Positions 14,990-31,456 of a stretch of 64,000 nt of DNA are shown here, piece by piece (the stretch's first letter is position 1; the number at the start of each line of letters is the position of its first letter). Origin of the DNA: a virus (lineage: Duplodnaviria; Caudoviricetes); the IMG/VR virus record IMGVR_UViG_2684623061_000001, positions 1,800 to 65,799 of that record. One strand, given 5' to 3'. The position numbers were made by a program, and so were the translations under genes. The notes beneath the pieces were generated by a model. The model searched no databases. It saw only the letters and a list, made by a program, of their open reading frames with translations, and was not told the DNA's origin.

Positions 14990-15228
14990 GCTCCCCCCGG
15001 ATCGGATCGAGGCCATCGACAACCGGCCGCGGTATTGTCCCCCAACCGAGTTGACTTGGGAGCCGCGAGTTAGCTTATCGACCCGGCGCAGCAAAGCTGC
15101 AGAAGCACCACGATGTAGCCTCTGCGGCGCTGCGCATCCCCTGCGTCTTGCTCGCGCCCCCTCCCCCGCGCCAAGCCGGACGACGGCCCACTGAGGGTCA
15201 CTCGCTGCGCCGTGTGGCCGAAAATCGC

Positions 15229-15282
15229 GGGTCCTTCCCACAGCATAAACCGCACGGGGGGCCAAGCCGCAAAACCCCGCTA
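15229..15282 (+). other. Candidate cos site (cosQ/cosN-like)
   Basis: GGGTCCT (identical to lambda cosQ) followed by ACG-GGGGGCCAAGC-CGC-N7-CGCTA, echoing lambda ACG-GGGCGGCGACCT-CGC-N7-CGCTA. Confidence 0.6.
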
Positions 15283-15342
15283 GCGTCAATCTTTTCATTC
15301 GGGTTTGCAGTCCCTGCAACCCGGTTCGCATCCGGACATCCC

Positions 15343-16599: not shown

Positions 16600-17636
16600 C
16601 ACGGCCGGCGTACTACAACGAGAATGATCTCTACCTGTGCGGTTGGCTCCGTAATCTCATTGCGGCCGACCTGATTCCCCCGGGCGACGTTGATGACCGA
16701 GACATCCGATCTGTTTCCGCAGACGACCTGCGCGGCTACGGCCAATGCCATTTCTTCGCCGGAATCGGCGGCTTCGCCTACGCCTGCCGGCTCGCGGGCT
16801 GGCCGGACGGCAAGGAAATCTGGACAGGCGGCTTCCCCTGCCAGCCGTTCAGCGTTGCAGGCCGCCAGCGCGCTCAAGCGGACGACCGCCACCTCTGGCC
16901 GGAACTGCGCCGCCTTGTTGCATCGGCGCGACCCGCTCTTTTCCTGGGTGAGAACGTTGCTGGCCTCATCCCGCTGGGGCTCGACGGAGTTCTGTCTGAT
17001 CTGGAAGCCGAAGGCTACGCCAGCCGGGCGATTGTTGTTCCAGCTTGCGCCGTCAACGCCCCGCACCGACGCGACCGCGTCTGGATCGTCGGTCGCCGTT
17101 TGGCCGACTGTGGTGGCGAACGACGACAACAAGAGCCCGGCGGCGCACCTCGCGATGATGCGCCGGATGCCAGGCGGGCCTCGTCAGGCGATCACCAGCT
17201 TGCAAGTCGCGGCGAAAGCGGTCTGGCCGACGGCGACGGCGAACGACGCAGAGAAGCGCGGCGACTTTGCGGCCGAGCGACGCAATGGCCTGCCGGGAGT
17301 GGCGAAGGCGGTGTGGAGTACGCCTCGGACGAGCGACGGCGAGAAGGGCGGCCCCAATCAACAGTTCGGCAGTGGGTCGACCCGACCGCTGACGGCGCAG
17401 GCAGTCTGGGCGACACCGACGGTGCGCGATCACAAAGACGCATCGAGCATTGGCAGCGCACCGGAGAATGGGATGCTTGGCAGACAAGTCAAACCCTCGC
17501 CGGTCGCCGGGTACCTGAATCCGGAATTCGTCTTCTGGCTGATGGGATATCCGCCCGAATTCCTAAGCTGCGCGCCGCCGGCAATTCGATCGTTCCGCCG
17601 GTTGCCGCCGAAATCCTCCGCGCCCTGCGCGGCTGA
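16596..17636 (+). CDS. C5 cytosine DNA methyltransferase, alpha polypeptide
   Basis: FFAGIGG (I), GFPCQPFS (IV), ENV (VI), HRRDRVW (VIII), GNSIVP (X); motif IX absent from this frame. Confidence 0.88.
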   Translation: MTRPAYYNENDLYLCGWLRNLIAADLIPPGDVDDRDIRSVSADDLRGYGQCHFFAGIGGFAYACRLAGWPDGKEIWTGGFPCQPFSVAGRQRAQADDRHLWPELRRLVASARPALFLGENVAGLIPLGLDGVLSDLEAEGYASRAIVVPACAVNAPHRRDRVWIVGRRLADCGGERRQQEPGGAPRDDAPDARRASSGDHQLASRGESGLADGDGERRREARRLCGRATQWPAGSGEGGVEYASDERRREGRPQSTVRQWVDPTADGAGSLGDTDGARSQRRIEHWQRTGEWDAWQTSQTLAGRRVPESGIRLLADGISARIPKLRAAGNSIVPPVAAEILRALRG

Positions 17637-18020: not shown

Positions 18021-18051
18021 CATGAACGCTTCCTTCCCAATGGAAGCCAAG
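18021..18051 (-). promoter_or_regulatory. 31-bp repeated promoter-like motif, copy a
   Basis: RC = CTTGGCTTCCATTGGGAAGGAAGCGTTCATG. Confidence 0.8.
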
Positions 18052-18160
18052 TGGAACATCGCCATTTCGAGCGAAAACCCGAAGCCGTTAAGGTGTCAGA
18101 CGAGAACGACCGTTCTCAACAATGGGCGCTGGATACGTGCTAGCCGGCGCGCTGCGCCGG

Positions 18161-18193
18161 AGACAAGAGAACCGCCGCGCTGAGCGCGGCGGT
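18161..18193 (-). terminator. Intrinsic terminator
   Basis: ACCGCCGCGC-TGA-GCGCGGCGGT stem with pyrimidine-rich tail on the minus strand. Confidence 0.6.
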
Positions 18194-18200
18194 GCAGGAG

Positions 18201-18482
18201 TTACGTGATCTCGTACTCGCCCGTGGTCCGGTTGCAACGAACTCGGACGGCGCTACGAATCGGCGTGTAGCAGTCGATCCACAAACTGAGGCGGTATACG
18301 TCGCGGTAGCTCACCGCATGTCGGGCTAGGACGTCGGTCAGACCGATGTCCAGCAGATACTGCGCCATCTCAGCGTCGGTGGACGACTCATCATTGGACA
18401 GGGCGTCCTCGACCACCACGAGAACGCGTTCGGGTAATGAAACGAGGACTGGGTCCGGCCCTTTGATGTCGTATAAGTGCAT
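18201..18482 (-). CDS. Hypothetical protein (cassette 2)
   Basis: GGAG RBS; LSNDESSTDAEM motif; its upstream motif (copy b) is interrupted by the IS. Confidence 0.75.
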   Translation of the reverse strand: MHLYDIKGPDPVLVSLPERVLVVVEDALSNDESSTDAEMAQYLLDIGLTDVLARHAVSYRDVYRLSLWIDCYTPIRSAVRVRCNRTTGEYEIT

Positions 18483-18517
18483 CGTTTGTCTCCGTCTTGG
18501 GGAGCCCATGAACGCTT

Positions 18518-19887
18518 TATATGGACGCTCCCCATTGAGCAAGACGTAGCAGTTCCGGCATGTCGGAGGGTTGCAGTTTTATATCCGGCCTGTCGTGCAG
18601 GCGGATGCTTGCTGGCCCTGATGGAATTCGCTGATTCGCGCCTCATTTCATTCAAGAGCTCTAGAGCCCTAGCGTTCATTCAGGCTTGGCGAATCACGGT
18701 CCTACCTGCATGCCATCGCTGTCACGTACTTGCGCAATCGAACTAGCCCTCCAGAAAGAAGGTGGTGTGCTACTAAATTATGCGATTTGACTTGCGTAAT
18801 CGGATCGATATCGACGCGCATGAGCCAATAGCGCCCAGATGGTGCGAGCGATCTTGTTAGCGATCGCCACCACCGCAACATTGAACGGCCGACGCTGGGC
18901 TATCTTGGCGGCCCACGTCGGAGTTTCACTTTGACGGAAGAGCAAGCTTCGCGCGCCGTGAATCAGCAATGTGCGCACGTAAGTGTCCCCCCGCTTGCTG
19001 ATGCCAAGCAGTTGCACCCTGCCGCCGGTGCCGACCTGTCGTGGTACCAATCCGAGCCAGGCAGAAAATTCCCGAGCGGACTTGAACGCTTGCACATTGC
19101 CCATCGTTGCGATTGCTGCAGTGGCAGTCAGCATGCCGACGCCGGGGATCTCTGAAATTCTCAGGCAAGCGTCGTCCTGGCGGAGCCATTGCTTCAAACG
19201 AGATTCGATCTCGCGGACCTGCACGTCAAGGCCGCGAATACGGGCATATTGATCTCGCAACGTTTCAATCAGCATTCCAGGAAGCCGGTCGCACAAGCGA
19301 GCTAGCGCGTCAGGGAGATGCTTGTTGAGCCCGGCGCGCTGCTTTGGCATGACCTCGCCATACTCGGTGAGTAGCCCGCGCAAGGCGTTGATCTGTGCCG
19401 TGCGAAACTTGACTAGCTGCTGGCGCATGCGATGCAGTGCCAAAATGGCCTGTTGCCCTTCAGTCTTGATGGCAACTGCTTTGACTCCAGGCTGTTGCAT
19501 GGCCGTCCAAATCGCGCGGGCGTCTGCGGCATCGTTCTTGTTTCCGTGCACGAACGCCTTGACCTGCTTGGCAGGCAGTAGCACCGCGCGGTGACCTAGT
19601 GCTATCAGCCTGCGCGCCCAATGCTGGGAACCCCCACAGGCCTCCATGCCGACGAAGCATGGCCGGCGGTTTGAAAAGTGATCAAGAAACTTCGCTCGCT
19701 TAAGTCGCAGATTCACTATCTCACCAGTGGATGGCTCCACCCAGTGAAGTTGAAATACGTTCTTGGCGATGTCGACACCTACAATCGTCGCGATGCTGGA
19801 CATGGCTCTGCTCCAAAGCATGGGAGGTTTGGTCTACCACGCCGACTGTTATCGGCACGGCAGGAGCGGGGAGCGTCCATCCCATTT
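18518..19887 (-). mobile_element. IS110-family (IS1111 group) element, copy 1, 1370 bp
   Basis: 13-bp subterminal IRs ATGGACGCTCCCC at 18521-18533 / 19868-19880; removing it restores motif copy b (CATGAACGCTT|CATACCAACGGAACATCAAG). Confidence 0.93.
18778..19821 (-). CDS. IS110-family DEDD recombinase/transposase
   Basis: VGVDIAK, MEAC, KNDAADA, IPGVG, LGLVP..TGG, GISKRG. Confidence 0.96.
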   Translation of the reverse strand: MLWSRAMSSIATIVGVDIAKNVFQLHWVEPSTGEIVNLRLKRAKFLDHFSNRRPCFVGMEACGGSQHWARRLIALGHRAVLLPAKQVKAFVHGNKNDAADARAIWTAMQQPGVKAVAIKTEGQQAILALHRMRQQLVKFRTAQINALRGLLTEYGEVMPKQRAGLNKHLPDALARLCDRLPGMLIETLRDQYARIRGLDVQVREIESRLKQWLRQDDACLRISEIPGVGMLTATAAIATMGNVQAFKSAREFSAWLGLVPRQVGTGGRVQLLGISKRGDTYVRTLLIHGARSLLFRQSETPTWAAKIAQRRPFNVAVVAIANKIARTIWALLAHARRYRSDYASQIA

Positions 19888-20366
19888 CATACCAACGGAA
19901 CATCAAGTGGCTTGTCCCGAATGGAACGAAGGAGATGATCCAAGTTGGTCAATGCGGCCATTCGTCGCTTATGGTCCATGCCAAAGAACCACGCGCCCAG
20001 TAGCGCCGCCGTCCCATCTTCGGATGGATATAGGAAGAGCGTCGGACGTTCCGGCGTGGTCACCGCGATAAAGCGTTTGCGTCCCTCTGCATCTATTCCG
20101 ACGTAACCGGGCGGAACGTGTACTTTTTCGGGCAAGCGGCGAAAAAACTCCTCGTACTGCTCCGAGCGCGTGTATTGGATCACCTCGCCAACCACAACAT
20201 CCTCATACCAATAGAAGTCCTCATCTGAAAGCATGAAGGGCCAGTGGAGGATGGTGGGCGGCGGCCTGCAGATCCGGAGCGTCAGCACCTGGCCGACGGA
20301 AATGTCGCGAATAGTAGATTCACGCTCTGCGAGGGCCTGTATGGCCCTCTTGGAATTCTTCTTCAT
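19887..20366 (-). CDS. Hypothetical protein
   Basis: 159-aa ORF with GGAG RBS. Confidence 0.55.
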   Translation of the reverse strand: MKKNSKRAIQALAERESTIRDISVGQVLTLRICRPPPTILHWPFMLSDEDFYWYEDVVVGEVIQYTRSEQYEEFFRRLPEKVHVPPGYVGIDAEGRKRFIAVTTPERPTLFLYPSEDGTAALLGAWFFGMDHKRRMAALTNLDHLLRSIRDKPLDVPLV

Positions 20367-20389
20367 GGCTTAGGTCTCCGAAAAGTGGC

Positions 20390-20416
20390 GGCGGCCGGAG
20401 ACGGCCTCCGGCCGCC
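20390..20416 (-). terminator. Hairpin / terminator after the DUF3489 gene
   Basis: GGCGGCCGGAG-N5-CTCCGGCCGCC. Confidence 0.55.
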
Positions 20417-20423
20417 AATCAGG

Positions 20424-21095
20424 TCACTCGGCCTCGTCGCTGCGGCCCGTGCGCTCGTTCTCGGCTTCGGCCCGCGCTTCGGTCTTGATCCAGTAGACGC
20501 GCTCTTCCTTGCCGTTCTTGTCGCTGGTCAGCTCGTAGCCCTTCTTTTTCAGGGCGCCGGCAAAGAAGCCCCGTACTGAGTGCTGCTGCCAGTTGGTCGC
20601 TTCCATCACCTCCTTGATGGTCACGCCCTGAGGGCGCAAGAGCAGCGCGACGACTTGGTCGACCCGGTTCTGCTCCCGCTTCTTCTGCGGGGCGGGGACT
20701 GCGGAGCGGGCGTCGCTGGCGGGGGCGGTTTCGGGCTCGCTGGTCTCGGTGTTCGATTGGGCAGGCTCATCGCCGGCCGGAAGTGTCGGGTCGTCGGTAT
20801 GGTCGGCTTCGGTATCAGCGCGAACTTCGGCCTCGATGTCGGCGTCTGCTTCAGAATCGGCATCGGCATCAGTGTCGCTGCTCGCTTGCGGCGGGGTGCG
20901 GCCAACCGCCTCGTAGCCGGCGGCGGTGAGCGCGTAGCCGGAGCCGTCAGCGGCAATCAGATCCTCGCGCAGCAGGCCACGCACCACCGCCGTGCGCGCA
21001 CCGCCGCCGAGGTTCTTCGGATAGTTCTCGATGCGGCCATCGGTTTGCGTGGCGAGCAGGATCAGGGCGCGCTGGCTGTCGGTAAGCTTGGTCAT
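20424..21095 (-). CDS. DUF3489 domain protein
   Basis: MTKLTDSQ..GGGARTAVV..LLLRPQGVTIKEVMEATNWQQHSVRGFFAGALKKKG; AAGGAG RBS. Confidence 0.9.
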   Translation of the reverse strand: MTKLTDSQRALILLATQTDGRIENYPKNLGGGARTAVVRGLLREDLIAADGSGYALTAAGYEAVGRTPPQASSDTDADADSEADADIEAEVRADTEADHTDDPTLPAGDEPAQSNTETSEPETAPASDARSAVPAPQKKREQNRVDQVVALLLRPQGVTIKEVMEATNWQQHSVRGFFAGALKKKGYELTSDKNGKEERVYWIKTEARAEAENERTGRSDEAE

Positions 21096-21166
21096 TGCAG
21101 TCTCCTTGGTAGGTGATGGGCGAATTCGGGTAAGCGCGCCCCACTGCTGCGGGGCGCGCGGGGTGT

Positions 21167-21397
21167 TCAGCTGATCAGGACTTCGCCAATGACGCTGCGC
21201 ACATCGATGTCGCGGCTGGCGATGGCCTGGATCACTTCGTCCGGAAGCTTCTGCAGGAAGAAGGTGGCGCGGCGCTCGATTTCGCGTTGCGCGATATCGC
21301 TCCAGTCTTGGAGCACCGCGAGTTGTGCCAGCGCCGAGCGGTTTCCTGTGTTCAGGCCGGCGAGATAGTCCTTCAGGATTTGTGTTTCGTCTCTCAT
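21167..21397 (-). CDS. Hypothetical protein (cassette 3)
   Basis: GGAGG RBS; downstream of motif copy c. Confidence 0.7.
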   Translation of the reverse strand: MRDETQILKDYLAGLNTGNRSALAQLAVLQDWSDIAQREIERRATFFLQKLPDEVIQAIASRDIDVRSVIGEVLIS

Positions 21398-21430
21398 GTG
21401 TGGCCTCCGTGGCCGTCGTTGGTGTGGGGA

Positions 21431-21461
21431 CATGAACGCTTCCTTCCACCACGAAGCCAAG
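21431..21461 (-). promoter_or_regulatory. 31-bp repeated motif, copy c
   Basis: RC = CTTGGCTTCGTGGTGGAAGGAAGCGTTCATG. Confidence 0.8.
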
Positions 21462-21532
21462 CGAATACAGCGGAGAAGAATGAGCGTTCTTCATCGCGTA
21501 CAGCTGTTAGACACCTTCGGAACGCGGGAACA

Positions 21533-21554
21533 GAAAAGCGCCCCGTAGGGCGCT
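21533..21554 (-). terminator. Intrinsic terminator
   Basis: AGCGCCC-CGTA-GGGCGCT with U-tract on the minus strand. Confidence 0.65.
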
Positions 21555-21571
21555 CGGAGTGCTTCGGTAGA

Positions 21572-21970
21572 TCATTCGCCGCTGATAGCTGTCTTCGCGT
21601 GCTGAAGCCCCCGGCGTGCCAGCCGCAGGCCAATGCGGTACTCGGCATCGCGCGGGCTGGTTTGCAGGTGCTCATCTATGCCGCTGAGCATTTCCTCCAA
21701 ATTGGGCTCCGACGTCGACGCGCTCGCGTTGAGAAGGTTGAGAATCTCCGGAACATCGCGGGCAACATCTGCCAAGTACACTGCGTGGCCGCCGGTTTCG
21801 GCGAGCATCTCGACGATCGCGACGCTGTTCGCCACCAGCTCGGCGGCGGCCTCAAGCTCAGCGGCGAGCAGCGCGGCATCGCCTCCGGCGTTCAGGGCTT
21901 CGAGAGATGCGCGGCACTCTTTCAAAGCGACGATGGCGTTGCGAAATCGGAAGGTGTTGTTCGTGTTCAT
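21572..21970 (-). CDS. Hypothetical protein (cassette 4; RFRN family paralog)
   Basis: GGAG RBS; FRFRNAIVALKECRASLEAL resembles 23370-23627. Confidence 0.75.
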   Translation of the reverse strand: MNTNNTFRFRNAIVALKECRASLEALNAGGDAALLAAELEAAAELVANSVAIVEMLAETGGHAVYLADVARDVPEILNLLNASASTSEPNLEEMLSGIDEHLQTSPRDAEYRIGLRLARRGLQHAKTAISGE

Positions 21971-22002
21971 GCTGGTCTCCGTGGGTGTCGTTGGTGTGGG
22001 GA

Positions 22003-22033
22003 CATGAACGCTTCCTTCCGCGCCGAAGCCAAG
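22003..22033 (-). promoter_or_regulatory. 31-bp repeated motif, copy d
   Basis: RC = CTTGGCTTCGGCGCGGAAGGAAGCGTTCATG. Confidence 0.8.
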
Positions 22034-22102
22034 CGAATAGAGCGACTAAGAACGAGCGTTCTCCAACGCGTACAGCTGCCAGACAACTTCATCGAACGCG
22101 CA

Positions 22103-22127
22103 GAAAAGCAGCGCCCCGAAGGGCGCT
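22103..22127 (-). terminator. Intrinsic terminator
   Basis: AGCGCCC-CGAA-GGGCGCT, near-copy of the one at 21537. Confidence 0.6.
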
Positions 22128-22143
22128 TCGCGAGCGACGCAGA

Positions 22144-22539
22144 TCAGAGGATTCGGCGCTGCAAGATGGCCGTCGGGATCAGCTCCGTGCGTGCGCGGTC
22201 CGCTTCCCAGCGATTCCCAAGCAGGGATTTTTCGGGGATGGGCGCGGTGAAGATGGTTCTGGCGCCGGGGGTGCTCGGGAATTCGCTCGTCCCGCCCTCA
22301 CCGAGCCATGTGTTGCCCACCATCGTGTGCCGCTCAGTCGGGAGCTCATCGTCGGGGGTGCCGCTGCCGTTGGCGGCGCGCGCGCAGGCGGCGTAGCCAG
22401 CCAAGTAGGCGGCGGTCAGCGCTGCCTTAATACCCCAAACTCCGACGCTGGGGAAATCCAGCGAATCGCTACCTTGTTCTTCCAAGGTTTCCACGTCGAG
22501 GTGCTACTGCGCGATGGTGGTAAAAAGTTCGATGTTCAT
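22144..22539 (-). pseudogene. DUF6900-like gene with an in-frame TAG at codon 12 (cassette 5)
   Basis: GGAGG RBS then MNIELFTTIAQ*HLDVETLEEQGSDSLDF; the paralog has Q at this position. Confidence 0.8.
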
Positions 22540-22572
22540 GTCGGCCTCCGTAGCCTTGCGTTGGTGTGGGGA

Positions 22573-22603
22573 CATGAACGCTTCCTTCTCCGACGAAGCC
22601 AAG
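22573..22603 (-). promoter_or_regulatory. 31-bp repeated motif, copy e
   Basis: RC = CTTGGCTTCGTCGGAGAAGGAAGCGTTCATG. Confidence 0.8.
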
Positions 22604-22669
22604 CAGATTCCGCGATAAAGAACGATCATTCTCGGACGTAGACAGGCGTCGGACAGCTACAGCGGGCAG

Positions 22670-22697
22670 AAACAAGAAACGCCCCCGTTTGGGGGCG
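22670..22697 (-). terminator. Intrinsic terminator
   Basis: CGCCCCC-GTTT-GGGGGCG followed by TTTCTTGTTT on the minus strand. Confidence 0.7.
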
Positions 22698-22725
22698 CAT
22701 CGGTCGCGCTTCGTGCGATTAGGTC

Positions 22726-23115
22726 TCAGGCGATTCGACGTTGCCGGATGGCGGTCGGAATGAGCACGTCGCAGGCCTTTCGCTCGGTCCAGTGGTACGC
22801 CAGCAGCTCGACCTCCGGGATTGGTAAGGTGACCACGGTCTCCGCCCGCTGGTCGAGCGACCAGTCGGTGGCTTCGCCTTCGCCGAGCCAGATGCCGCAT
22901 AGCATGGTGTGTCGCTCGGTGGTCAGCGCATCGGCGCTACTGCCGTTGGCCGCGCGTACCGCCGCCGCGTAACCCGCGAAGTAGGCGGCGGTCAGTGCGG
23001 CATCGATACCCCAAGCCGGAACGCTATGGAAGTCCAGGCTATCGTTGCCGCGAGTCTCTAGCGTCGCTACATCCAGATGCTGTTGCGCGATGGTGGTGAG
23101 CGTCTTCTTGTGCAT
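22726..23115 (-). CDS. DUF6900-like protein (cassette 6)
   Basis: TTIAQQHLDVATLETRGNDSLDFHSVPAWGIDAALTAAYFAG; GGAGG RBS. Confidence 0.82.
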   Translation of the reverse strand: MHKKTLTTIAQQHLDVATLETRGNDSLDFHSVPAWGIDAALTAAYFAGYAAAVRAANGSSADALTTERHTMLCGIWLGEGEATDWSLDQRAETVVTLPIPEVELLAYHWTERKACDVLIPTAIRQRRIA

Positions 23116-23149
23116 GACAGCCTCCGTGGCCGTGCGTGTTGGGTGCACG

Positions 23150-23180
23150 CATGAACCCTTCGATTCGGCCGGAAGCCAAG
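23150..23180 (-). promoter_or_regulatory. 31-bp repeated motif, copy f
   Basis: RC = CTTGGCTTCCGGCCGAATCGAAGGGTTCATG. Confidence 0.75.
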
Positions 23181-23300
23181 TGAACCCGTCGTCATATCCA
23201 GGTTTTCACCGTCGCCAGACAACCGCTGTACAGCTAAGGCCGGATGGTTGTCTGGAGGCTAAACAGAACGGAAGAGCATTCGTTCTTCTCGCGATAACAG

Positions 23301-23331
23301 CTTGGCTTCCAAACAGAAGGAAGCGTTCATG
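23301..23331 (+). promoter_or_regulatory. 31-bp repeated motif, copy g (divergent from f)
   Basis: CTTGGCTTCCAAACAGAAGGAAGCGTTCATG. Confidence 0.8.
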
Positions 23332-23369
23332 TCGTCGCCGCACCGACGCGGCGACGCCAAGGACACGAA

Positions 23370-23627
23370 ATGCCGAACCTGTCGTACTGCCGGTTTCGCA
23401 ACACGCTGGTCGATCTGAATGAGTGCCAATCGGCGCTGGAGTCGTTGATCCATGATGAGCCGCTGATCCCACTGTCCCGCGAGGAACTAGCCGCCGCGAA
23501 AGAACTGGCGAGGACTTGCTTGGGCATCGTTTACCTGTTGTGCGAGGCCGGCGGTGAAGAGATTGCCGACGAGCCGGACATGGCGAAACTGGTCGAGAAG
23601 TTCAATAGAGAAGCGGCTGCACCGTAA
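23370..23627 (+). CDS. Hypothetical protein (cassette 7; RFRN family)
   Basis: AAGGA RBS; MPNLSYCRFRNTLVDLNEC. Confidence 0.78.
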   Translation: MPNLSYCRFRNTLVDLNECQSALESLIHDEPLIPLSREELAAAKELARTCLGIVYLLCEAGGEEIADEPDMAKLVEKFNREAAAP

Positions 23628-23643
23628 GCCCGGAAGAATGAAG

Positions 23644-23680
23644 ACCCCAGCGCCCACAGGGTGCTGGGGTATTCGTTCTT
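23644..23680 (+). terminator. Intrinsic terminator
   Basis: ACCCCAGCGCCC-ACA-GGGTGCTGGGGT then ATTCGTTCTT. Confidence 0.65.
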
Positions 23681-23746
23681 CCAAAACGTCGATCAGCCGC
23701 TTCCTGTCCGTCCGCTGTCTCGTCCCCGAGTTCTGCAGAGAAGTCG

Positions 23747-23777
23747 CTTGGCTTTGTCCCGAACGGAAGCGTTCATG
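23747..23777 (+). promoter_or_regulatory. 31-bp repeated motif, copy h
   Basis: CTTGGCTTTGTCCCGAACGGAAGCGTTCATG. Confidence 0.8.
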
Positions 23778-23815
23778 ACGACGCCGCATCGTCGCGGCTC
23801 GAAAAGGACAATGCC

Positions 23816-24346
23816 ATGAACAATAATGCGGCCTTCGCCGAAGCACAGCTGCGCAGCTTGAGCGATTGTTTGGAACGGGTACTGCTGTCCATCACGCCGG
23901 ATGAGGAAGCCGAGAACTGCCTGACGCTCTTCGCCTGCTACGGCCTCGCCAGCGTCCTCGCCGAACGCACCATCACGTTCCGGACCAACCGCCTCGGCGG
24001 CGATGTCCTTGAGCGGTTGGTGGAAGGTTGTCGGCAGGAGTTGGCCCCGCTGGAGTGGGGTGGCGATAAGGCGAAGGGCAGGTTGGCGAAGCGCCTCGTG
24101 CCAAGCGAAATCAGCGAAGACGAGATGACCCTGCGCTGGTTGCTCTCGACTATCGAGCGGTACCTCGAAGGACTTGAGCCGGAGTATGTGGCGCTTCCGG
24201 TGCATCAACTCCGGCGCGCGGTACGCGACGTCCGATTGATGCAGGTCTGGGATGTGATCGATGCCGGGTACCAGCCCAAGTTGAGGTTGGCCTTGCGTCA
24301 CTTGGAAAGTGCGATCGTGGGTGCGGAGTGCGCCCCGCGAAACTGA
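23816..24346 (+). CDS. Hypothetical helical protein (cassette 8)
   Basis: AAGGA RBS, 176 aa. Confidence 0.7.
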   Translation: MNNNAAFAEAQLRSLSDCLERVLLSITPDEEAENCLTLFACYGLASVLAERTITFRTNRLGGDVLERLVEGCRQELAPLEWGGDKAKGRLAKRLVPSEISEDEMTLRWLLSTIERYLEGLEPEYVALPVHQLRRAVRDVRLMQVWDVIDAGYQPKLRLALRHLESAIVGAECAPRN

Positions 24347-24456
24347 TCTCGCAGAAACGCTCGAAAAGCGCTTGGCTTCTGCTTGGAATGAAATGGGATG
24401 GACGCTCCCCGCTCCTGCCGTGCCGATAACAGTCGGCGTGGTAGACCAAACCTCCC

Positions 24457-25500
24457 ATGCTTTGGAGCAGAGCCATGTCCAGCATCGCGACGATTGTAGG
24501 TGTCGACATCGCCAAGAACGTATTTCAACTTCACTGGGTGGAGCCATCCACTGGTGAGATAGTGAATCTGCGACTTAAGCGAGCGAAGTTTCTTGATCAC
24601 TTTTCAAACCGCCGGCCATGCTTCGTCGGCATGGAGGCCTGTGGGGGTTCCCAGCATTGGGCGCGCAGGCTGATAGCACTAGGTCACCGCGCGGTGCTAC
24701 TGCCTGCCAAGCAGGTCAAGGCGTTCGTGCACGGAAACAAGAACGATGCCGCAGACGCCCGCGCGATTTGGACGGCCATGCAACAGCCTGGAGTCAAAGC
24801 AGTTGCCATCAAGACTGAAGGGCAACAGGCCATTTTGGCACTGCATCGCATGCGCCAGCAGCTAGTCAAGTTTCGCACGGCACAGATCAACGCCTTGCGC
24901 GGGCTACTCACCGAGTATGGCGAGGTCATGCCAAAGCAGCGCGCCGGGCTCAACAAGCATCTCCCTGACGCGCTAGCTCGCTTGTGCGACCGGCTTCCTG
25001 GAATGCTGATTGAAACGTTGCGAGATCAATATGCCCGTATTCGCGGCCTTGACGTGCAGGTCCGCGAGATCGAATCTCGTTTGAAGCAATGGCTCCGCCA
25101 GGACGACGCTTGCCTGAGAATTTCAGAGATCCCCGGCGTCGGCATGCTGACTGCCACTGCAGCAATCGCAACGATGGGCAATGTGCAAGCGTTCAAGTCC
25201 GCTCGGGAATTTTCTGCCTGGCTCGGATTGGTACCACGACAGGTCGGCACCGGCGGCAGGGTGCAACTGCTTGGCATCAGCAAGCGGGGGGACACTTACG
25301 TGCGCACATTGCTGATTCACGGCGCGCGAAGCTTGCTCTTCCGTCAAAGTGAAACTCCGACGTGGGCCGCCAAGATAGCCCAGCGTCGGCCGTTCAATGT
25401 TGCGGTGGTGGCGATCGCTAACAAGATCGCTCGCACCATCTGGGCGCTATTGGCTCATGCGCGTCGATATCGATCCGATTACGCAAGTCAAATCGCATAA
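24457..25500 (+). CDS. IS110-family DEDD recombinase/transposase
   Basis: Protein identical to 18778-19821. Confidence 0.96.
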   Translation: MLWSRAMSSIATIVGVDIAKNVFQLHWVEPSTGEIVNLRLKRAKFLDHFSNRRPCFVGMEACGGSQHWARRLIALGHRAVLLPAKQVKAFVHGNKNDAADARAIWTAMQQPGVKAVAIKTEGQQAILALHRMRQQLVKFRTAQINALRGLLTEYGEVMPKQRAGLNKHLPDALARLCDRLPGMLIETLRDQYARIRGLDVQVREIESRLKQWLRQDDACLRISEIPGVGMLTATAAIATMGNVQAFKSAREFSAWLGLVPRQVGTGGRVQLLGISKRGDTYVRTLLIHGARSLLFRQSETPTWAAKIAQRRPFNVAVVAIANKIARTIWALLAHARRYRSDYASQIA

Positions 25501-25539
25501 TTTAGTAGCACACCACCTTCTTTCTGGAGGGCTAGTTCG

Positions 25540-25745
25540 ATTGCGCAAGTACGTGACAGCGATGGCATGCAGGTAGGACCGTGATTCGCCAAGCCTGAAT
25601 GAACGCTAGGGCTCTAGAGCTCTTGAATGAAATGAGGCGCGAATCAGCGAATTCCATCAGGGCCAGCAGGCATCCGCCTGCACGACAGGCCGGATATAAA
25701 ACTGCAACCCTCCGACATGCCGGAACTGCTACGTCTTGCTCAATG
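25540..25745 (+). ncRNA. Predicted bridge/seek RNA of the IS1111 element (ends approximate; second copy on the minus strand at ~18533-18738)
   Basis: Long non-coding right end; stem TGATTCGC/GCGAATCA encloses ATGAACGCT and GAATGAA (target matches); ATTCCAT and ATATAAAA match the circle junction. Confidence 0.78.
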
Positions 25746-25768
25746 GGGAGCGTCCATATAAAGCGTTC

Positions 25769-26050
25769 ATGTCGTCGCCGCAACAACGCGGCGCAACGAG
25801 GAGCGCAGAACGGGACTTTCGCAGCACGGCTAAGCAGTTGGAGCGATTCGAGGTCTCCCTGCATGATTTACTGCACTGGGACGACACCTTGCAGCTGGAG
25901 TTGGACGACCTATTGGCGGCGCGAACAATGGCGTCTAGTTGCTGGGCAATCGTGAAGATGCTGTGCGAGCACGCGCGCATTGAACTGCCGAGCGAACCCG
26001 ATTGGTTTGCGATTCTGGACGAGGTCAACGAGGCGGCGGCGGTTCCCTAA
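25769..26050 (+). CDS. Hypothetical protein (cassette 9; RFRN family paralog), start uncertain
   Basis: DFRSTAKQL...AARTMASSCWAIVKMLCE..EPDW..NEAAAVP aligns with 23370-23627. Confidence 0.6.
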   Translation: MSSPQQRGATRSAERDFRSTAKQLERFEVSLHDLLHWDDTLQLELDDLLAARTMASSCWAIVKMLCEHARIELPSEPDWFAILDEVNEAAAVP

Positions 26051-26093: not shown

Positions 26094-26157
26094 GCGTGCT
26101 TCGCCTTCACTAACCTCCGCGCGGGGCCGGCGGGCACCGGATTCGATTGCTTCTATC

Positions 26158-26706
26158 GTGGGAATTTCCATCCGCGCCTACGGCCGCCATCGGGGCGTGT
26201 CGGATACGGCCGTACGCAAAGCCATTGCCGCCGGCCGCATCACTGCCGAGGCGGATGGGACCATCAGTCCCGCACGCGCCGACGCCGAGTGGGCGGCTAG
26301 CACCCGCGCGCCGGACCCGCCCCTGGTCGCGCCTGCGCGGCCGGCGCGGACGCGCGCGGCAACCGGCGCCGAGGACGATGTAGCCGGCGTAGCTACGGTC
26401 AGCACCAAGGGCGGCAGCAACACCTACGCGCAGGCTCGCACGGCCAACGAAGTCCTCAAGGCGCAGCACCACAAGCTGCGCATCGCCCAGCTCAAGGGTG
26501 AGTTGATCGACCGGTCCCAGGCGACGGCGCAGGTGTTCGCGCTGGCGCGGGCTGAGCGCGACGCCTGGCTGAATTGGCCGGCGCGGATCAGCTCGATGCT
26601 GGCCGCCGAGCTTGGACTTGACCCACACACCATGCATGTCGCGCTGGAGCGCGAAGTGCGGCAGCACCTGACTGAACTCGCGGAGTTCAACGCCCGACTG
26701 GACTAA
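26158..26706 (+). CDS. Terminase small subunit-like protein
   Basis: N-terminal HTH SIRAYGRHRGVSDTAVRKAI; coiled coil, GELID; directly upstream of TerL; GTG start. Confidence 0.8.
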   Translation: MGISIRAYGRHRGVSDTAVRKAIAAGRITAEADGTISPARADAEWAASTRAPDPPLVAPARPARTRAATGAEDDVAGVATVSTKGGSNTYAQARTANEVLKAQHHKLRIAQLKGELIDRSQATAQVFALARAERDAWLNWPARISSMLAAELGLDPHTMHVALEREVRQHLTELAEFNARLD

Positions 26707-26709
26707 TTC

Positions 26710-29700
26710 TTGTACGACGGCTTCGACCACGTTGAGAAGGCGTGGCGCGATGGCCTGACGCCCGATCCGTTTCTGGACGTGTCCGATTGGGCGGACCGCG
26801 ACCGGGTGCTGTCGAGCACCTCGTCCTCGGAGCCGGGTCGCTGGCGAACCGCGCGCACGCCGTACTTGCGCGACATCATGAACGACCTGTCGCCGGCTTC
26901 GGCGACCGAGCGCGTCGTGTTCATGAAGGGCGCGCAGGTCGGCGGTCCGCTGGCGCTGGATACCCCGCTGCCGACGCCGTCGGGTTGGATAACGATGGGC
27001 GAAGTGCAAGTCGGAGACGCCTTGTTCGATGAGCAGGGTTGGCCCTGCCGGGTCGTCGGCGTGTCGCCGGTCTACGTCGACCGCGAGTGCTTCGAGATCG
27101 AGTTCGACGACGGCGAACGGATCGTTTGCGACGCCGAGCATCGCTGGCCGACCCTGGATTTCACCACGGACGCGCCGCGTCGAAAGACCCTGCGGACGGG
27201 GCAGATGGTGGGGCGAACCCAACTTGGGGGTAGCCCGCGCCGACGCTTCGGCATCGACAACGGCGGCGCACTGGCCCTGCCGGAGCGCGATTACCCGGTG
27301 CATCCCTACCTTCTCGGGCTCTGGCTGGGCGATGGCAACGCCTGGATGAACCACCTGTCGGTGCACGAGGACGATCGCGAAGTCGTCGAGCACCTGGCCG
27401 ACTGCGGCGTCCGGGCATTGTTTCGGCTTCCGCACTGGCGCAAGGGCAAGTGCGCCAATGTCGTGATCGACCCAGTCTACGCAGTGGACCAGTCCGGCCA
27501 GGCACCGGCCAGCTGCGGCACCTCTTTGTTCTCGGTGCGGCTGCGGCAGCTGAACTTGATCGACAACAAGCATCTCCCAGCTGCTTACCTGCGCGGCGGG
27601 CACGAACAACGTCTGGCCCTGGTGCAGGGGCTGATGGACAGCGACGGGTCGATCACGCCGGACGGCAAGCGCTGCGAGTTCAGCAATACGAATTCGCGCC
27701 TGGTGGAGGGCATGGTCGAGCTGCTGCGCAGCCTGGGCTACAAGCCCGCGGTCTATCACCACGAGGCCAAGACCCCGAAGCGCGCGGACGGTCGGCAGCG
27801 ACCTTGCGCCGCGGGTTGGCGGGTGTCGTGGACGGCCTACGCCGAGGAGCCGATGTTTCGGCTGTCCCGCAAGCGGGCACGAATGCGCCCGCGCAGTGCC
27901 GGCCGCCCCGGCCGCGCGCTGCGTCGCCGCATTGTTGCGATCCGTCCGGTGCCATCGGTCCCGGTGCGTTGCATTGAGGTCGACACGCCCAGCCACCTCT
28001 ATCTGTGCGGGAAGGGATTCATCCCGACCCACAACACCGAGTGCGGCAACAACTGGATCGGCTACGTCATCGCGTGCGCGCCCGGGCCGATGATGGCCGT
28101 GGCGCCCACGGTCGAGATGGCCAAGCGCAACTCGAAACAGCGCATCGACCCGCTGATCGAGGAGTCGCCGTCGCTGCGTGAGCGCATCGCGCCCTCGCGC
28201 GCGCGGGACGCCGGCAACACGATCCTGGCCAAGGAGTTCCGCGGCGGCGTCCTGGTTCTGACGGGTGCGAACAGCGCGGTCGGCCTGCGCTCGATGCCGG
28301 TGCGGTATTTGTTTCTGGACGAAGTGGATGGCTACCCGCGCGACGTAGAGGGCGAAGGCGATGCGGTCGCGCTGGCTGAGGCCCGCACCCGTACCTTCAC
28401 CCGCCGCAAGATTCTGTTGGTGTCGACGCCGACGATTGCCGGCGCCAGCACCATCGAGCGCGAGTACCTGGCCTCCGACCAGCGTCGCTACTTTGTGCCG
28501 TGTCCACACTGCGCCCATGCGCAATGGCTCCGGTTCGAGCAGCTGCGCTGGACCTGGGGCGACCCACGCTCGGCGCGCTACATCTGCGAGTCCTGCGAGC
28601 AGCCCATCGGCGAGCACCACAAGACCGCGATGCTGGCGGACGGCCGATGGGTCGCCACGGCGCCACAAAACCGCGGCAAGACGGCCGGTTACCACCTCTC
28701 ATCGTTGTACTCGCCGGTCGGCTGGCGCAGTTGGGCCGACATCGCCGCCGCATGGGAAACCGCGCAGGGATCGGCGACGGCGCTGAAAGCGTTCAAGAAC
28801 ACCGAGTTGGGCGAGACGTGGGAGGAGGAAGGCGAGGCCCCGGACTGGGAGCGCTTGCTGGAACGACGCGAGGACTACCGCATCGGCACCGTGCCGGCGG
28901 GCGGCCTGTTGCTGGCCGGCGGCGCCGACATTCAGAAGGACCGAATCGAGGTATCGGTGTGGGCCTTCGGCCGTGGCCGGGAGACGTGGCTGGTCGAGCA
29001 CCGCGTGTTGATGGGCGATACCGCCCGCGCTGCGGTCTGGAATGAGCTGGGCGCCATCTTGTCGGAGCAGTGGACCCACGCGAGTGGCGCGCTGCTGCCG
29101 CTGACCCGCCTGGGCCTGGACACCGGATTCGCGACGCAGGAGGCCTATGCCTTCGCGCGCGGCGTCAACGACCCACGCCTGCTGCCAATGAAGGGCGTCG
29201 GCAGCGGGGCGGCGCTCATTGGCACCCCGACCGCGGTCGACGTCAGCGTGCCGGGCAAGCGGTTGCGGCGGGGGCTGAAGCTGTTCGCCATTGCGGGCGG
29301 CATCGCCAAACTGGAGTTCTACAACGCCCTGCGACTGTCGATCGAGATCGGCCCGGACGGACAGCCGGCATTCCCGCCCGGCTATGTCCACCTGCCGAAG
29401 ATCGATGGCGAGTTTCTGCAGCAGCTGACCGCCGAACACCTGATCACCCGCCGCGACCGCCACGGCTATCCGCAGCGCGTGTGGGAGAAGCGCCGCGACC
29501 GCAACGAAGCCTTGGACTGCTACGTCATGGCACGCGCTGCGGCGATGCAGGCGGGCGTCGATCGCTTCGAAGAGCGGCATTGGCGCGAGCTGGAGCGAAC
29601 GCTCGGCATCGAGATCGGCCCGCCGCCCCTGCCACCAGCCCCGCCGTCTTATCCCACACCACAGGCCGCCCCATCGGGCGGCCTTTCCGTTTCTGGACCC

Positions 29701-29745
29701 GCGCGCCGTGGGCGCCGAGTCATTCCGAGCCGTTTCATGCGATGA
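26710..29745 (+). CDS. Terminase large subunit (lambda gpA family) with intein
   Basis: WRTARTPY, KGAQVGG|T, LFLDEVD, STPT, CPHC, GADIQ, RNEALDC. Confidence 0.95.
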   Translation: MYDGFDHVEKAWRDGLTPDPFLDVSDWADRDRVLSSTSSSEPGRWRTARTPYLRDIMNDLSPASATERVVFMKGAQVGGPLALDTPLPTPSGWITMGEVQVGDALFDEQGWPCRVVGVSPVYVDRECFEIEFDDGERIVCDAEHRWPTLDFTTDAPRRKTLRTGQMVGRTQLGGSPRRRFGIDNGGALALPERDYPVHPYLLGLWLGDGNAWMNHLSVHEDDREVVEHLADCGVRALFRLPHWRKGKCANVVIDPVYAVDQSGQAPASCGTSLFSVRLRQLNLIDNKHLPAAYLRGGHEQRLALVQGLMDSDGSITPDGKRCEFSNTNSRLVEGMVELLRSLGYKPAVYHHEAKTPKRADGRQRPCAAGWRVSWTAYAEEPMFRLSRKRARMRPRSAGRPGRALRRRIVAIRPVPSVPVRCIEVDTPSHLYLCGKGFIPTHNTECGNNWIGYVIACAPGPMMAVAPTVEMAKRNSKQRIDPLIEESPSLRERIAPSRARDAGNTILAKEFRGGVLVLTGANSAVGLRSMPVRYLFLDEVDGYPRDVEGEGDAVALAEARTRTFTRRKILLVSTPTIAGASTIEREYLASDQRRYFVPCPHCAHAQWLRFEQLRWTWGDPRSARYICESCEQPIGEHHKTAMLADGRWVATAPQNRGKTAGYHLSSLYSPVGWRSWADIAAAWETAQGSATALKAFKNTELGETWEEEGEAPDWERLLERREDYRIGTVPAGGLLLAGGADIQKDRIEVSVWAFGRGRETWLVEHRVLMGDTARAAVWNELGAILSEQWTHASGALLPLTRLGLDTGFATQEAYAFARGVNDPRLLPMKGVGSGAALIGTPTAVDVSVPGKRLRRGLKLFAIAGGIAKLEFYNALRLSIEIGPDGQPAFPPGYVHLPKIDGEFLQQLTAEHLITRRDRHGYPQRVWEKRRDRNEALDCYVMARAAAMQAGVDRFEERHWRELERTLGIEIGPPPLPPAPPSYPTPQAAPSGGLSVSGPARRGRRVIPSRFMR
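26947..28035 (+). mobile_element. Class 3 intein with LAGLIDADG homing endonuclease (363 aa)
   Basis: Starts P-LALDTP, ends PTHN before Thr+1; WCT triad (AEHRW, VRCIEV, PTHN); LLGLWLGDG and VQGLMDSDG. Confidence 0.88.
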
Positions 29746-29960
29746 CCAACCTGCCTTACACCCACGAACAATTGCAGGCGCTGCGCAAGGCGCTCGCGCG
29801 CGGCGAACGCCGCGTCAGCTTCGGCGACCGCCTGGTCGAGTACCGCTCCGTCGATGAGTTGTTGGCGGCGATTCGCGAGATCGAAGCCGCGCTTGCCGGT
29901 ACCGAAGGCCAGCCGCGACGCGTTCGTCGTCTGCGCGTGACCACGAACAAGGGATTCTGA
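29742..29960 (+). CDS. gpW-like head-tail joining protein
   Basis: YTHEQLQALRKALARGERRVSFGDRLVEYRSVDEL between TerL and portal. Confidence 0.85.
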   Translation: MTNLPYTHEQLQALRKALARGERRVSFGDRLVEYRSVDELLAAIREIEAALAGTEGQPRRVRRLRVTTNKGF

Positions 29961-31456
29961 TGAGTTGGTGGTCTCGCCTCCGAACCTCGATGTTCGGAGG
30001 TTCGCCCGTGCACGAAGCATCGGGCTACGGCCGCCGCTCGACCGCCTGGCAACCCAGCAACCCCGGTGCGGTGGCCGCGTTGCTGGCGACCGGCGACGCC
30101 TTGCGGGTGCGCTCGCGCGACCTGGTCCGCCGCAATGCCTGGGCCAATGCGGCGGTCGAGGCGTTCGTCGCAAACGCGGTCGGCACGGGCATCAAGCCGC
30201 AGTCCTTGCTCGCCGATCAGCCGCAGCGTGAAGCGTTGCAAGCGCTGTGGCGCGACTGGTGCGACGAGGCCGATGCGGCCGGGCTGACCGATCTGTACGG
30301 CCTGCAAGCCCTGGCCTGCCGCGCGCTGCTGGAGGGCGGCGAGTGCCTGGTGCGCCTGCGCCCGCGCCGCGACGAAGACGGCCTGGTCGTGCCGCTCCAA
30401 TTGCAGGTGCTCGAACCCGAGCACTTGCCGATGTCGCTGAACCGCGAGGAGCCGAACGGCAACCTGACCCGCGCGGGCATCGAGTTCGATCGGCTCGGTC
30501 GACGGGTGGCCTACCACCTGTATCTGTCGCACCCGCAAGACGGGGCGATGGCGCCGATGTCGCGGCACGGCGGCATGGAAACGTTCCGGGTGCCGGCATC
30601 GGAGATCCTGCATATTTTCCGGCCGCTGCGGCCGGGGCAGATTCGCGGCGAGCCGTGGTTGGCGCGCGCGCTGGTCAAGCTCAATGAGCTGGACCAGTAC
30701 GACGACGCCGAACTGGTGCGCAAGAAGACGGCGGCGATGTTCGCCGGCTTCATCACCCGCGACGGTCCGGAAGATCCTTTACCCGGCGATGGACCGCCCG
30801 ACGAATCCGGTAATGCACCGCTCGGCCTGGAGCCGGGCACGTTACAGATCCTCGAAGCCGGCGAGAACGTCACTTTTTCGCAACCCGCGGATGTGGGGTC
30901 GAGCTACGACCCGTTCCTACGTGCCCAATTCCGCGCCGTCGCCGCGGCGATCGGCATCACCTACGAGCAGCTCACCGGCGACCTGTCGGGGGTGAACTAC
31001 TCCTCGATTCGCGCGGGCCTGCTGGAGTTCCGGCGCCGCTGCGAGATGGTCCAGCACGCGGTGCTGGTCTATCAGCTGTGCCGGCCGATCTGGAATGCGT
31101 TCGTCGATGCTGCCGTGCTCTCGGGAGCGATCGACCTGCCCGGTTACCGCCGCCGCAAGCGCCAGTACCGCGCCTGCAAATGGGTACCGCAGGGGTGGAG
31201 TTGGGTCGATCCAGAGAAGGAGTTCAACGCGATGATCCTGGCGATCCGCGCAGGGCTGCTGTCGCGCTCCGAAGCGATCGCCAGTTCCGGCTACGACGCC
31301 GAGACGATCGACCGCGAGATCGCTGCCGACGCCGAGCGCGCCGATGCGCTTGGTCTGGTCCTCGACACCGATCCCCGCGTCGTCGCCCGCAATGGCGTCA
31401 AGCACGCCCCACCGCCGGCCGACGCGCCGGTCCAAGAATCGAAACCTACGCAATGA
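29960..31456 (+). CDS. Portal protein, lambda family
   Basis: RSRDLVRRN, RPGQIRG, LTGDLSGVNYSSIRAG, WVDPEKE. Confidence 0.95.
   Translation: MSWWSRLRTSMFGGSPVHEASGYGRRSTAWQPSNPGAVAALLATGDALRVRSRDLVRRNAWANAAVEAFVANAVGTGIKPQSLLADQPQREALQALWRDWCDEADAAGLTDLYGLQALACRALLEGGECLVRLRPRRDEDGLVVPLQLQVLEPEHLPMSLNREEPNGNLTRAGIEFDRLGRRVAYHLYLSHPQDGAMAPMSRHGGMETFRVPASEILHIFRPLRPGQIRGEPWLARALVKLNELDQYDDAELVRKKTAAMFAGFITRDGPEDPLPGDGPPDESGNAPLGLEPGTLQILEAGENVTFSQPADVGSSYDPFLRAQFRAVAAAIGITYEQLTGDLSGVNYSSIRAGLLEFRRRCEMVQHAVLVYQLCRPIWNAFVDAAVLSGAIDLPGYRRRKRQYRACKWVPQGWSWVDPEKEFNAMILAIRAGLLSRSEAIASSGYDAETIDREIAADAERADALGLVLDTDPRVVARNGVKHAPPPADAPVQESKPTQ

Follow-up and report, generated by a model that had tools for sequence, protein, structure and literature searches.

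The stretch of DNA analysed here (the window, 64,000 nucleotides (nt)) spans positions 1,800 to 65,799 of the IMG/VR provirus record IMGVR_UViG_2684623061_000001 (Duplodnaviria; Caudoviricetes) and carries two copies of an insertion sequence (IS). The segment 24393-25762 is, judged by its sequence, an intact insertion sequence of the IS110 family, IS1111 group, and its 3' non-coding region very probably encodes a bridge RNA (seekRNA) with a target loop and a donor guide; a promoter ahead of the recombinase gene is predicted to form at the circle junction. This interpretation, put forward in a first-pass annotation of the window, is supported by the family layout, by a covarying RNA scaffold and by three guide segments. 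We determined the anatomy and the boundaries of the element, and found that the scaffold is conserved and co-varies and that the three guides co-vary with the flanks and ends of the element in its relatives. From published relatives we infer that the region is transcribed, bound by the recombinase and able to direct recombination. The two copies and their main parts map as follows (positions are those of the window):

24393-25762, + strand: IS copy A, 1370 bp with one AA core counted, its ends set by an empty site in contig L072 and by the second copy
18516-19885, - strand: IS copy B, 1370 bp, inserted into the same motif as copy A and oriented alike relative to it
24475-25500, + strand: recombinase gene, 341 amino acids (aa), with DEDD/RuvC-like and Tnp domains, from Pfam, translation and Protein Data Bank (PDB) matches
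24398-24410, + strand: left subterminal inverted repeat ATGGACGCTCCCC; the 5 nt outside it, ATGGG (24393-24397), form the terminal extension
25745-25757, + strand: right subterminal inverted repeat GGGGAGCGTCCAT, followed by ATA and the AA core

Both Pfam domains of the IS110 family are found in the recombinase (PF01548 at 1.8e-13 and PF02371 at 1.2e-20). Residues 251-260, GLVPRQVGTG, fit the C-terminal GL-P----S(t)G motif of IS1111 transposases, proteins of 330-350 aa (PMC11187229). The recombinase matches ISCro4 (PDB 9t56, 1.1e-7) and IS621 (8wt6, 2.4e-6) in the C-terminal domain, where T259 aligns with the serine of the ISCro4 SG; E54, D91 and D94 lie opposite acidic residues of ISCro4 in a weak stretch of the alignment, and D11 was assigned by eye. 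The subterminal inverted repeats are 13 bp long and 100% complementary and have short terminal extensions, in line with the 7-17 bp usual in the IS1111 group; within the IS, 82 nt of non-coding sequence precede the gene and 262 nt follow it. Subterminal inverted repeats and a long non-coding region downstream of the gene are the published layout of the IS1111 group (PMC11187229; PMC11208160). We assigned the element to this group because of the Pfam domains, the subterminal repeats and the longer downstream non-coding region, which bears out the earlier placement of the element in the IS1111 group with its RNA region downstream of the recombinase. A protein-pattern scan, restricted to one genome per species, yielded 68 loci with related recombinases (34-89% identity over the best segment, full-length matches being 45-69% identical), and these served as the relatives in the comparisons below.

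The insertion boundaries could be read from an empty site in the related viral contig L072, which was retrieved via the upstream phage gene (62% aa identity) and shows an uninterrupted ...GCTTCTGCTCGAAATGAAGCGTTCATGTC at the corresponding place. The target deduced from this site is GGAATG-AA-GCGTTCATG; copy A is flanked by ...CTTGGAATGAA and GCGTTCATG, and copy B by ...GTTGGTATGAA and GCGTTCATG. Because the L072 site is uninterrupted, the target core consists of two A's, and AGCGTTCAT thus corresponds to one core base plus eight flank bases; a reading of core and right flank as AA+AGCGTTCAT, with three A's, was ruled out by the same site. Copy B was found on the minus strand by searching the window and differs from copy A by one single-nucleotide polymorphism (SNP), 25669 being G in copy A and A in copy B. 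A third copy, ~99% identical (10 differences in 948 bases, compared over window 24386-25761), was present in contigs of the sediment-metagenome run X1, where it sits in a different leader of the same motif type. Its left flank ends in ...GGCTTGGCTTCCACCGA followed by GAATGAA and has no match within the window, and its right flank, GCGTTCATGTGGCC..., comes within 3 mismatches of three paralogous gene starts in the window. Insertion is thus specific in sequence and orientation, the two window copies and the metagenome copy all occupying the same motif in the same orientation. No circle junction or joint across the IS was seen in the DNA contigs of four sequencing runs. It is to be noted that the left end of the IS opens with ATG directly after the remnant of a phage ribosome site (window 24393-24557); the short open reading frame (ORF) starting there differs in frame from the recombinase gene and overlaps its start.

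An nhmmer search with the non-coding region of the window gave matches in 53 of 69 non-own loci, which start near position 39 of the region and extend as far as its end (window 25539-25763). When the element was compared with plasmids by megablast, the RNA region alone was matched, at 81% identity in four Bradyrhizobium records, and the recombinase gene was not; the RNA region is therefore better conserved at the DNA level than the gene. In one of these records it lies just downstream of an IS110-family gene. The Bradyrhizobium plasmid NZ_CP088277.1 carries two tandem IS110-family transposase genes at 111-2453, the RNA region 81% identical to that of the window coming after the second. The structured elements of the region are the following:

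25539-25709, + strand: structured non-coding RNA region of ~171 nt (the equivalent of a bridge RNA or long seekRNA), delimited by nhmmer and co-variation
25539-25544 with 25704-25709, + strand: helix P0, closing the RNA region
25561-25565 with 25654-25658, + strand: helix P1, with compensatory changes in 2 pairs
25582-25589 (TGATTCGC) with 25639-25646 (GCGAATCA), + strand: helix P2, the stem of the first-pass annotation, all four inner pairs compensatory
25594-25596 with 25635-25637, + strand: helix P3, from the consensus fold
25609-25612 with 25619-25622, + strand: hairpin P4, from the consensus fold
25661-25664 with 25688-25691, + strand: hairpin P5, within 25661-25691
25666-25671 with 25676-25681, + strand: hairpin P6, also within 25661-25691
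25582-25646, + strand: target-binding module of the consensus structure (P2, P3, internal loop and P4)

The alignment comprised the 48 loci with a hit over most of the region, minus the duplicate L018; the partial hits L027, L032, L033, L038, L050 and L061 were excluded. The RNAalifold consensus obtained from 41 distinct sequences contains 25 pairs, for which 97.9% of the cells are paired, a share that drops to 27-45% if the 3' partner is shifted by 1-3 columns. Compensatory changes occur in 12 of these pairs, and the co-variation score of 0.352 compares with 0.156 for shuffled alignments, none of 500 shuffles reaching it. An extended model including P0 and P6 was scored on 39 rows (leaving out L008, whose 5' part is unaligned, and L036, a near-duplicate of L035) and contains 35 pairs, with 94.1% of the cells paired, compensatory changes in 19 pairs and again none of 500 shuffles reaching its score. 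Two natural variants fall within the scaffold: the SNP between the window copies turns a G:C pair of P6 in copy A into A:C in copy B, and a close variant in run X4 with A>G at window 25643, in the 3' strand of P2, changes the A:U pair with 25585 into G:U and keeps the helix.

Two segments of the target-binding module correspond to the insertion site:

25599-25607, + strand: right target guide AUGAACGCU, complementary to the top strand over core base 2 and GCGTTCAT
25625-25631, + strand: left target guide GAAUG plus core AA, equal to the left flank and core
25632-25634, + strand: AUG extension following the left target guide, equal to the first 3 nt of the IS left end
24386-24392, + strand: left half of the target and core, GAATG-AA, at copy A
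25763-25770, + strand: right half of the target, GCGTTCAT; the ATG at 25769-25771 opens a 93-aa phage ORF

The two segments face each other across the internal loop that separates P3 from P4 and stand out as hypervariable blocks in an otherwise conserved alignment. The positions given earlier for the stem, both guides, ATTCCAT, the donor block and TTGCTC were all recovered on re-reading the sequence. As had been claimed, ATGAACGCT at 25599-25607 is the reverse complement of the right flank, AGCGTTCAT at 25762-25770, and GAATGAA at 25625-25631 equals the left flank plus core; the latter match is in fact longer, GAATGAAATG at 24386-24395 being identical to 25625-25634 over 10 nt instead of 7. 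It is exact in copy A (...GGAATGAA) and has one mismatch in copy B (...GGTATGAA), also as stated. The motif AGCGTTCAT occurs 10 times in the window, where 0.39 occurrences are expected and none of 100 shuffles reaches 10; two of these are the guides of the IS copies and the others are copies of the motif.

A further test compared the aligned guide block of each relative with its own flank, using all mismatched guide/flank pairings as the control. The right target guide showed an exact complement of at least 7 nt to core plus right flank in 29 of 39 non-redundant cognate pairs (25 of 30 distinct guides), a length reached by 0.15% of non-cognate pairs (n=1372). The left target guide was compared with the left flank backwards from the junction; 29 of the 35 cognate pairs, covering 19 of the 23 distinct guides, had a run of 6 nt or more, as did 1.0% of non-cognate pairs (n=1106), the run being typically 7 nt as in the window (GAATG + AA). 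L024 was kept out of the left-flank counts for a doubtful match to the left repeat, L052, which has no right-end anchor, is absent from the right-flank count, and L025, whose contig ends early, is absent from both. Among close relatives, guide and flank even change together at single bases, AAGATAATT occurring with AATTATCTT in L013 and likewise in L030, L014, L042 and L017. A chance origin of the guide matches is excluded, and the co-variation of guides and flanks upholds the proposed reading of the target loop.

The complement of the top strand lies 5' of the match to the bottom strand and the two guides overlap in the target, an order and overlap also published for IS1111 seekRNAs (PMC11187229). 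Since the right guide reads core base 2 plus 8 nt and the left guide 5 nt plus both core bases, the site specified would measure 15 nt (5+2+8). The AA core of the first-pass annotation is hence retained, and its estimate of a ~14-nt target is replaced by 15 nt on the evidence of the L072 empty site. The AUG extension is nearly invariant among the relatives. We considered it as a handshake guide and dropped this idea on the ground that the handshake guides of IS621 flank the top-strand guides; it is treated here as a junction-matching extension only.

Two further segments had been proposed to read the ends of the element joined in the excised circle:

25694-25701, + strand: left donor guide AUAUA plus core AA plus A (ATATAAAA), equal to the predicted circle junction ...CCATATAAA/ATGGG
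25651-25657, + strand: candidate right donor guide AUUCCAU, forming 6 Watson-Crick pairs and 1 G:U pair with the left end ATGGGAT

The agreement of ATATAAAA (25694) with the predicted circle junction held. The block sits in a multi-branch loop, with P5 on one side and the 3' strand of P0 on the other. Over its first 5 nt it is identical to the right end of the element in 40 of 40 distinct rows, although only two states (ATATA and ATACA) exist; over all 8 nt, 19 of 30 rows agree with the predicted circle junction and 6 of 30 with the integrated right junction. Of 32 distinct RNAs, 31 have the same core in the left target guide and the left donor guide, where 10.4 are expected from the marginals (shared core types: AA 15, AG 7, GA 7 and TA 2). 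Such sharing of the core between target and donor guides defines a bridge RNA. The donor-loop proposal thus stands for ATATAAAA as left donor guide, with right end, junction and core in agreement, and lacks such support for ATTCCAT, a candidate guide that shows no co-variation with the left end.

These data bear directly on the foremost competing explanation, a seekRNA that reads the target only. The protein would then recognize the IS ends through the inverted repeats, and P5/P6 and AUAUAAAA would serve in processing, protein binding or as part of the promoter. A precedent exists in ISEc11, for which an 82-nt seekRNA with two target matches only was sufficient for transposition, provided that the donor flanks agreed with the target (PMC11187229); the missing co-variation of the right donor guide and the 10-nt match of GAAUGAA plus AUG to the integrated left junction also speak in its favour. 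The tracking of the right-end variants by AUAUAAAA in every row and its sharing of the target-loop core across four core types are hard to explain without pairing, and PMC11208160 predicts donor-binding nucleotides in the multi-loops of many IS1111 orthologues. We regard a target-only RNA as improbable and retain the bridge RNA with a donor guide.

Sequence analysis by itself cannot separate an RNA from the + strand of the DNA, and the guides might act as single-stranded DNA of the element itself with no RNA made, like the transposon-borne DNA guides of IS200/IS605. The scaffold contains many G:U pairs that exist on the + strand only (for instance, one pair of P1 has 16 cases of U:G and one of P0 has 10) and would be C:A on the other strand, and IS1111 seekRNAs of the same family co-purify with the transposase and are essential (PMC11187229), which makes DNA guides very improbable. 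That the guide matches, which are short (7-10 nt) and poor in a few relatives, are accidental or relics of earlier insertion sites without any guiding role is of negligible probability, as most distinct guides match their own flanks at fixed scaffold positions and mismatched pairings hardly ever do so.

The promoter claimed to arise on circularisation is present and is a feature of the family at the sequence level:

25736-25741, + strand: -35 element TTGCTC, read from the sequence

On the circle, TTGCTC is followed after 17 nt by TAAAAT, made up of 25759-25762 and 24393-24394 (right end, core and two left-end bases). Across 19 element types, the -10 hexamer agrees with TATAAT at a mean of 4.8 of 6 positions on the circle and 2.7 of 6 in the integrated form, and 9 of the 19 have TTG at a spacing of 17 nt. 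No sigma-70-like promoter was found inside the integrated IS. Both IS copies are oriented like the phage genes that they interrupt, so that read-through from phage promoters would be possible.

We propose the following course of events. The 3' non-coding region, ~25539-25709, would encode a bridge RNA (seekRNA) whose loop binds both strands of the target: the 5' side, AUGAACGCU, pairs with the right half on the top strand and the 3' side, GAAUGAA, with the left half and the AA core on the bottom strand, both guides jointly specifying the 15-nt site GAATG-AA-GCGTTCAT. In the multi-branch loop 3' of P5/P6, AUAUAAAA, which has the same core dinucleotide as the target loop, would read the junction of the excised circle, namely right end, core and first left-end base. 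Circularisation would assemble the TTGCTC-17-TAAAAT promoter ahead of the recombinase gene.

Several observations weigh against this scheme. Concerning the RNA, no Rfam 15 family matched window 24300-25900 at E values up to 10, and P0 is the weakest helix, being paired in 86% of the cells, failing in the most distant relatives and having no 5' strand in L008. Guide matches fall below threshold in 10 of the 39 right-guide pairs and in 6 of the 35 left-guide pairs. For ATTCCAT, the mean number of positions paired with the left end is 6.07 in cognate and 5.75 in non-cognate combinations, full pairing is reached in 4 of 14 cognate combinations as compared to 26% of non-cognate ones, and four of its bases belong to the 3' strand of the covarying helix P1 (25654-25658). 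Among targets, five motif copies of the window that are one base off the guides remain unoccupied, and the right junction of the X1 copy is one A shorter than in the window copies.

The core itself is also less uniform than the scheme would have it. Among the relatives, 33 independent insertions could be compared: core base 1 is equal at both junctions in all 33, and core base 2 is equal in 20 and different in 13, so that a strict 2-nt shared core does not always apply. Where core base 2 differs, the left junction is of the donor type, as in both bottom-strand guides, and the right junction carries the base of the right target guide. Related elements at the same target differ in the A run of the right junction, L022 and L030 being one A shorter there than L013, L012 and L014. 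Such differences may in part reflect one-base slippage in runs of A. It is conceivable, if rather unlikely, that in this subfamily only the first core base has to be common to donor and target.

The target lies in the leader, from ribosome site (Shine-Dalgarno) to ATG, of a family of paralogous small phage genes, and each insertion parts the ribosome site from its ATG. The motif heads a repeated unit of ~50 nt found at at least nine small genes, which diverge around position 23200 (18021-25771, both strands), and found in L072 too. The unit contains a GAACG..CGTTC palindrome, CTTGGCTTC, GGAAGGAA, GCGTTC and the ATG, and is followed by conserved first codons (MSPHQR, MSSPQQR or MTTPHR). Some of these ATGs open ORFs of 88-115 aa and others ORFs of 12-37 aa; a short ORF at 23775-23819 overlaps the ATG of a 176-aa ORF at 23816. 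Judged by its sequence, the ~50-nt unit has the appearance of a promoter/leader cassette common to the paralogous accessory genes. Six of the small proteins encoded by the leader genes were tested and none matched a PHROG family. Unoccupied copies of the motif are located as follows:

21431-21447, - strand: motif copy GGAAGGAAGCGTTCATG
18021-18037, - strand: motif copy
22003-22019, - strand: motif copy
22573-22589, - strand: motif copy
23315-23331, + strand: motif copy
23761-23777, + strand: motif copy

All three occupied sites read ATG-AA and five unoccupied ones read AGG-AA, with one mismatch to the left guide, in keeping with the ATG preference suggested earlier. The accessory block is flanked by ParB/DNA-methyltransferase genes (15148-17633) and by the genes for the large terminase (26710-29745) and the portal protein (29960-31456). 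The genes upstream comprise a ParB-like/DNA-methyltransferase fusion and a second methyltransferase. An 861-aa ORF at 26110-28695, opposite the terminase gene, is probably spurious and due to high G+C content.

The nearest non-self proteins in a collection of 5.8 billion are 72% identical to the recombinase, and relatives of it occur in just 11 of 50,697 phage records; the sole named relative encountered was IS4321 (36% identity over 99% of the length, E 7e-50). Phage records searched by megablast contained nothing that matched the IS, and the 18-nt right end had 0 occurrences in the viral contigs scanned. A Pseudomonas aeruginosa protein 68% identical to the recombinase might belong to a named IS; a tblastn search of plasmids with it gave no P. 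aeruginosa copy. The 17-nt right end was found at 19 loci of metagenome contigs, which have only the terminal 30-40 nt in common with the family profile and for the most part no full recombinase ORF; flank complements, searched for naively in these loci, barely exceeded the background (mean 5.6 nt against 4.9 nt). We set these loci aside as other elements and drew nothing from them. By sequence comparison we class the element as a new representative of a known kind, the IS1111 elements with a bridge/seekRNA, with at most 72% protein identity to anything on record.

The element leaves the known mechanism, published since 2024, unchanged. It adds to the RNA-guided recombinases one well-resolved natural example, with boundaries given by an empty site, three independent insertions, a 15-nt target, an AA core and three guide segments, for each of which dozens of relatives served as a check, and it is an uncommon case of such an element in a phage. 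Its notable feature is its home and target, a repeated phage gene leader. As the target motif is repeated at the heads of accessory genes and five one-mismatch sites are unoccupied, the prophage offers a natural test bed for mismatch tolerance. It is conceivable, if rather unlikely, that the element is a dedicated hitch-hiker of one phage lineage with its guide tuned to the Shine-Dalgarno-to-ATG leader; insertion followed by precise RNA-guided excision would then switch single phage genes off and on, and the two inverted IS copies could flip the 4.5-kb block between them.

The closest known systems are the IS1111 elements ISEc11, ISPa11, ISKpn4 and ISPst6, whose seekRNAs have been described (Siddiquee et al. 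2024, PMC11187229). Like the present element, they combine a ~340-aa transposase carrying GL-P----S/T-G with subterminal inverted repeats and a long downstream non-coding region, and their RNAs have two short overlapping target matches in the same order, a long conserved form of ~145-172 nt besides a shorter target module, and a junction promoter on the circle. The published examples target attC, REP-like or other sites, whereas the present element targets a phage gene leader; no named IS was found as its close relative.

The bridge RNA of IS621 has been described by Durrant et al. 2024 (PMC11208160) and Hiraizumi et al. 2024 (PMC11208158). In these descriptions IS621 has two guide pairs, each addressing both strands, as the present element would have if AUUCCAU acts as a donor guide. 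It likewise has the same core dinucleotide in target and donor guides, a DEDD plus Ser/Thr composite recombinase (here a weak sequence match to 8wt6) and a circle intermediate with a junction promoter (both predicted here). It differs from the present element in that its RNA lies in the left end instead of the right, with the guide order reversed, and that its donor nucleotides occupy an internal loop and not a multi-branch loop. The inverted repeats of IS621 measure 2-3 bp and its core is CT, as compared to 13 bp and AA here; its nucleophile position is Ser, here Thr (T259); and its handshake guides extend the top-strand guides, whereas the 3-nt AUG found here comes after the bottom-strand guide.

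The transposase of IS4321/IS5075, also of the IS1111 family, is similar to the present one over its full length but distant (36%). Both elements target a repeated sequence on another mobile element, a phage motif in our case and transposon ends in that of IS4321/IS5075, which insert into the terminal repeats of Tn21-type transposons. IS492 of Pseudoalteromonas belongs to the IS110 group of the IS110 family and has no long inverted repeats; it shares site-specific insertion with the present element, and its precise excision to a circle provides a precedent for reversible gene switching.

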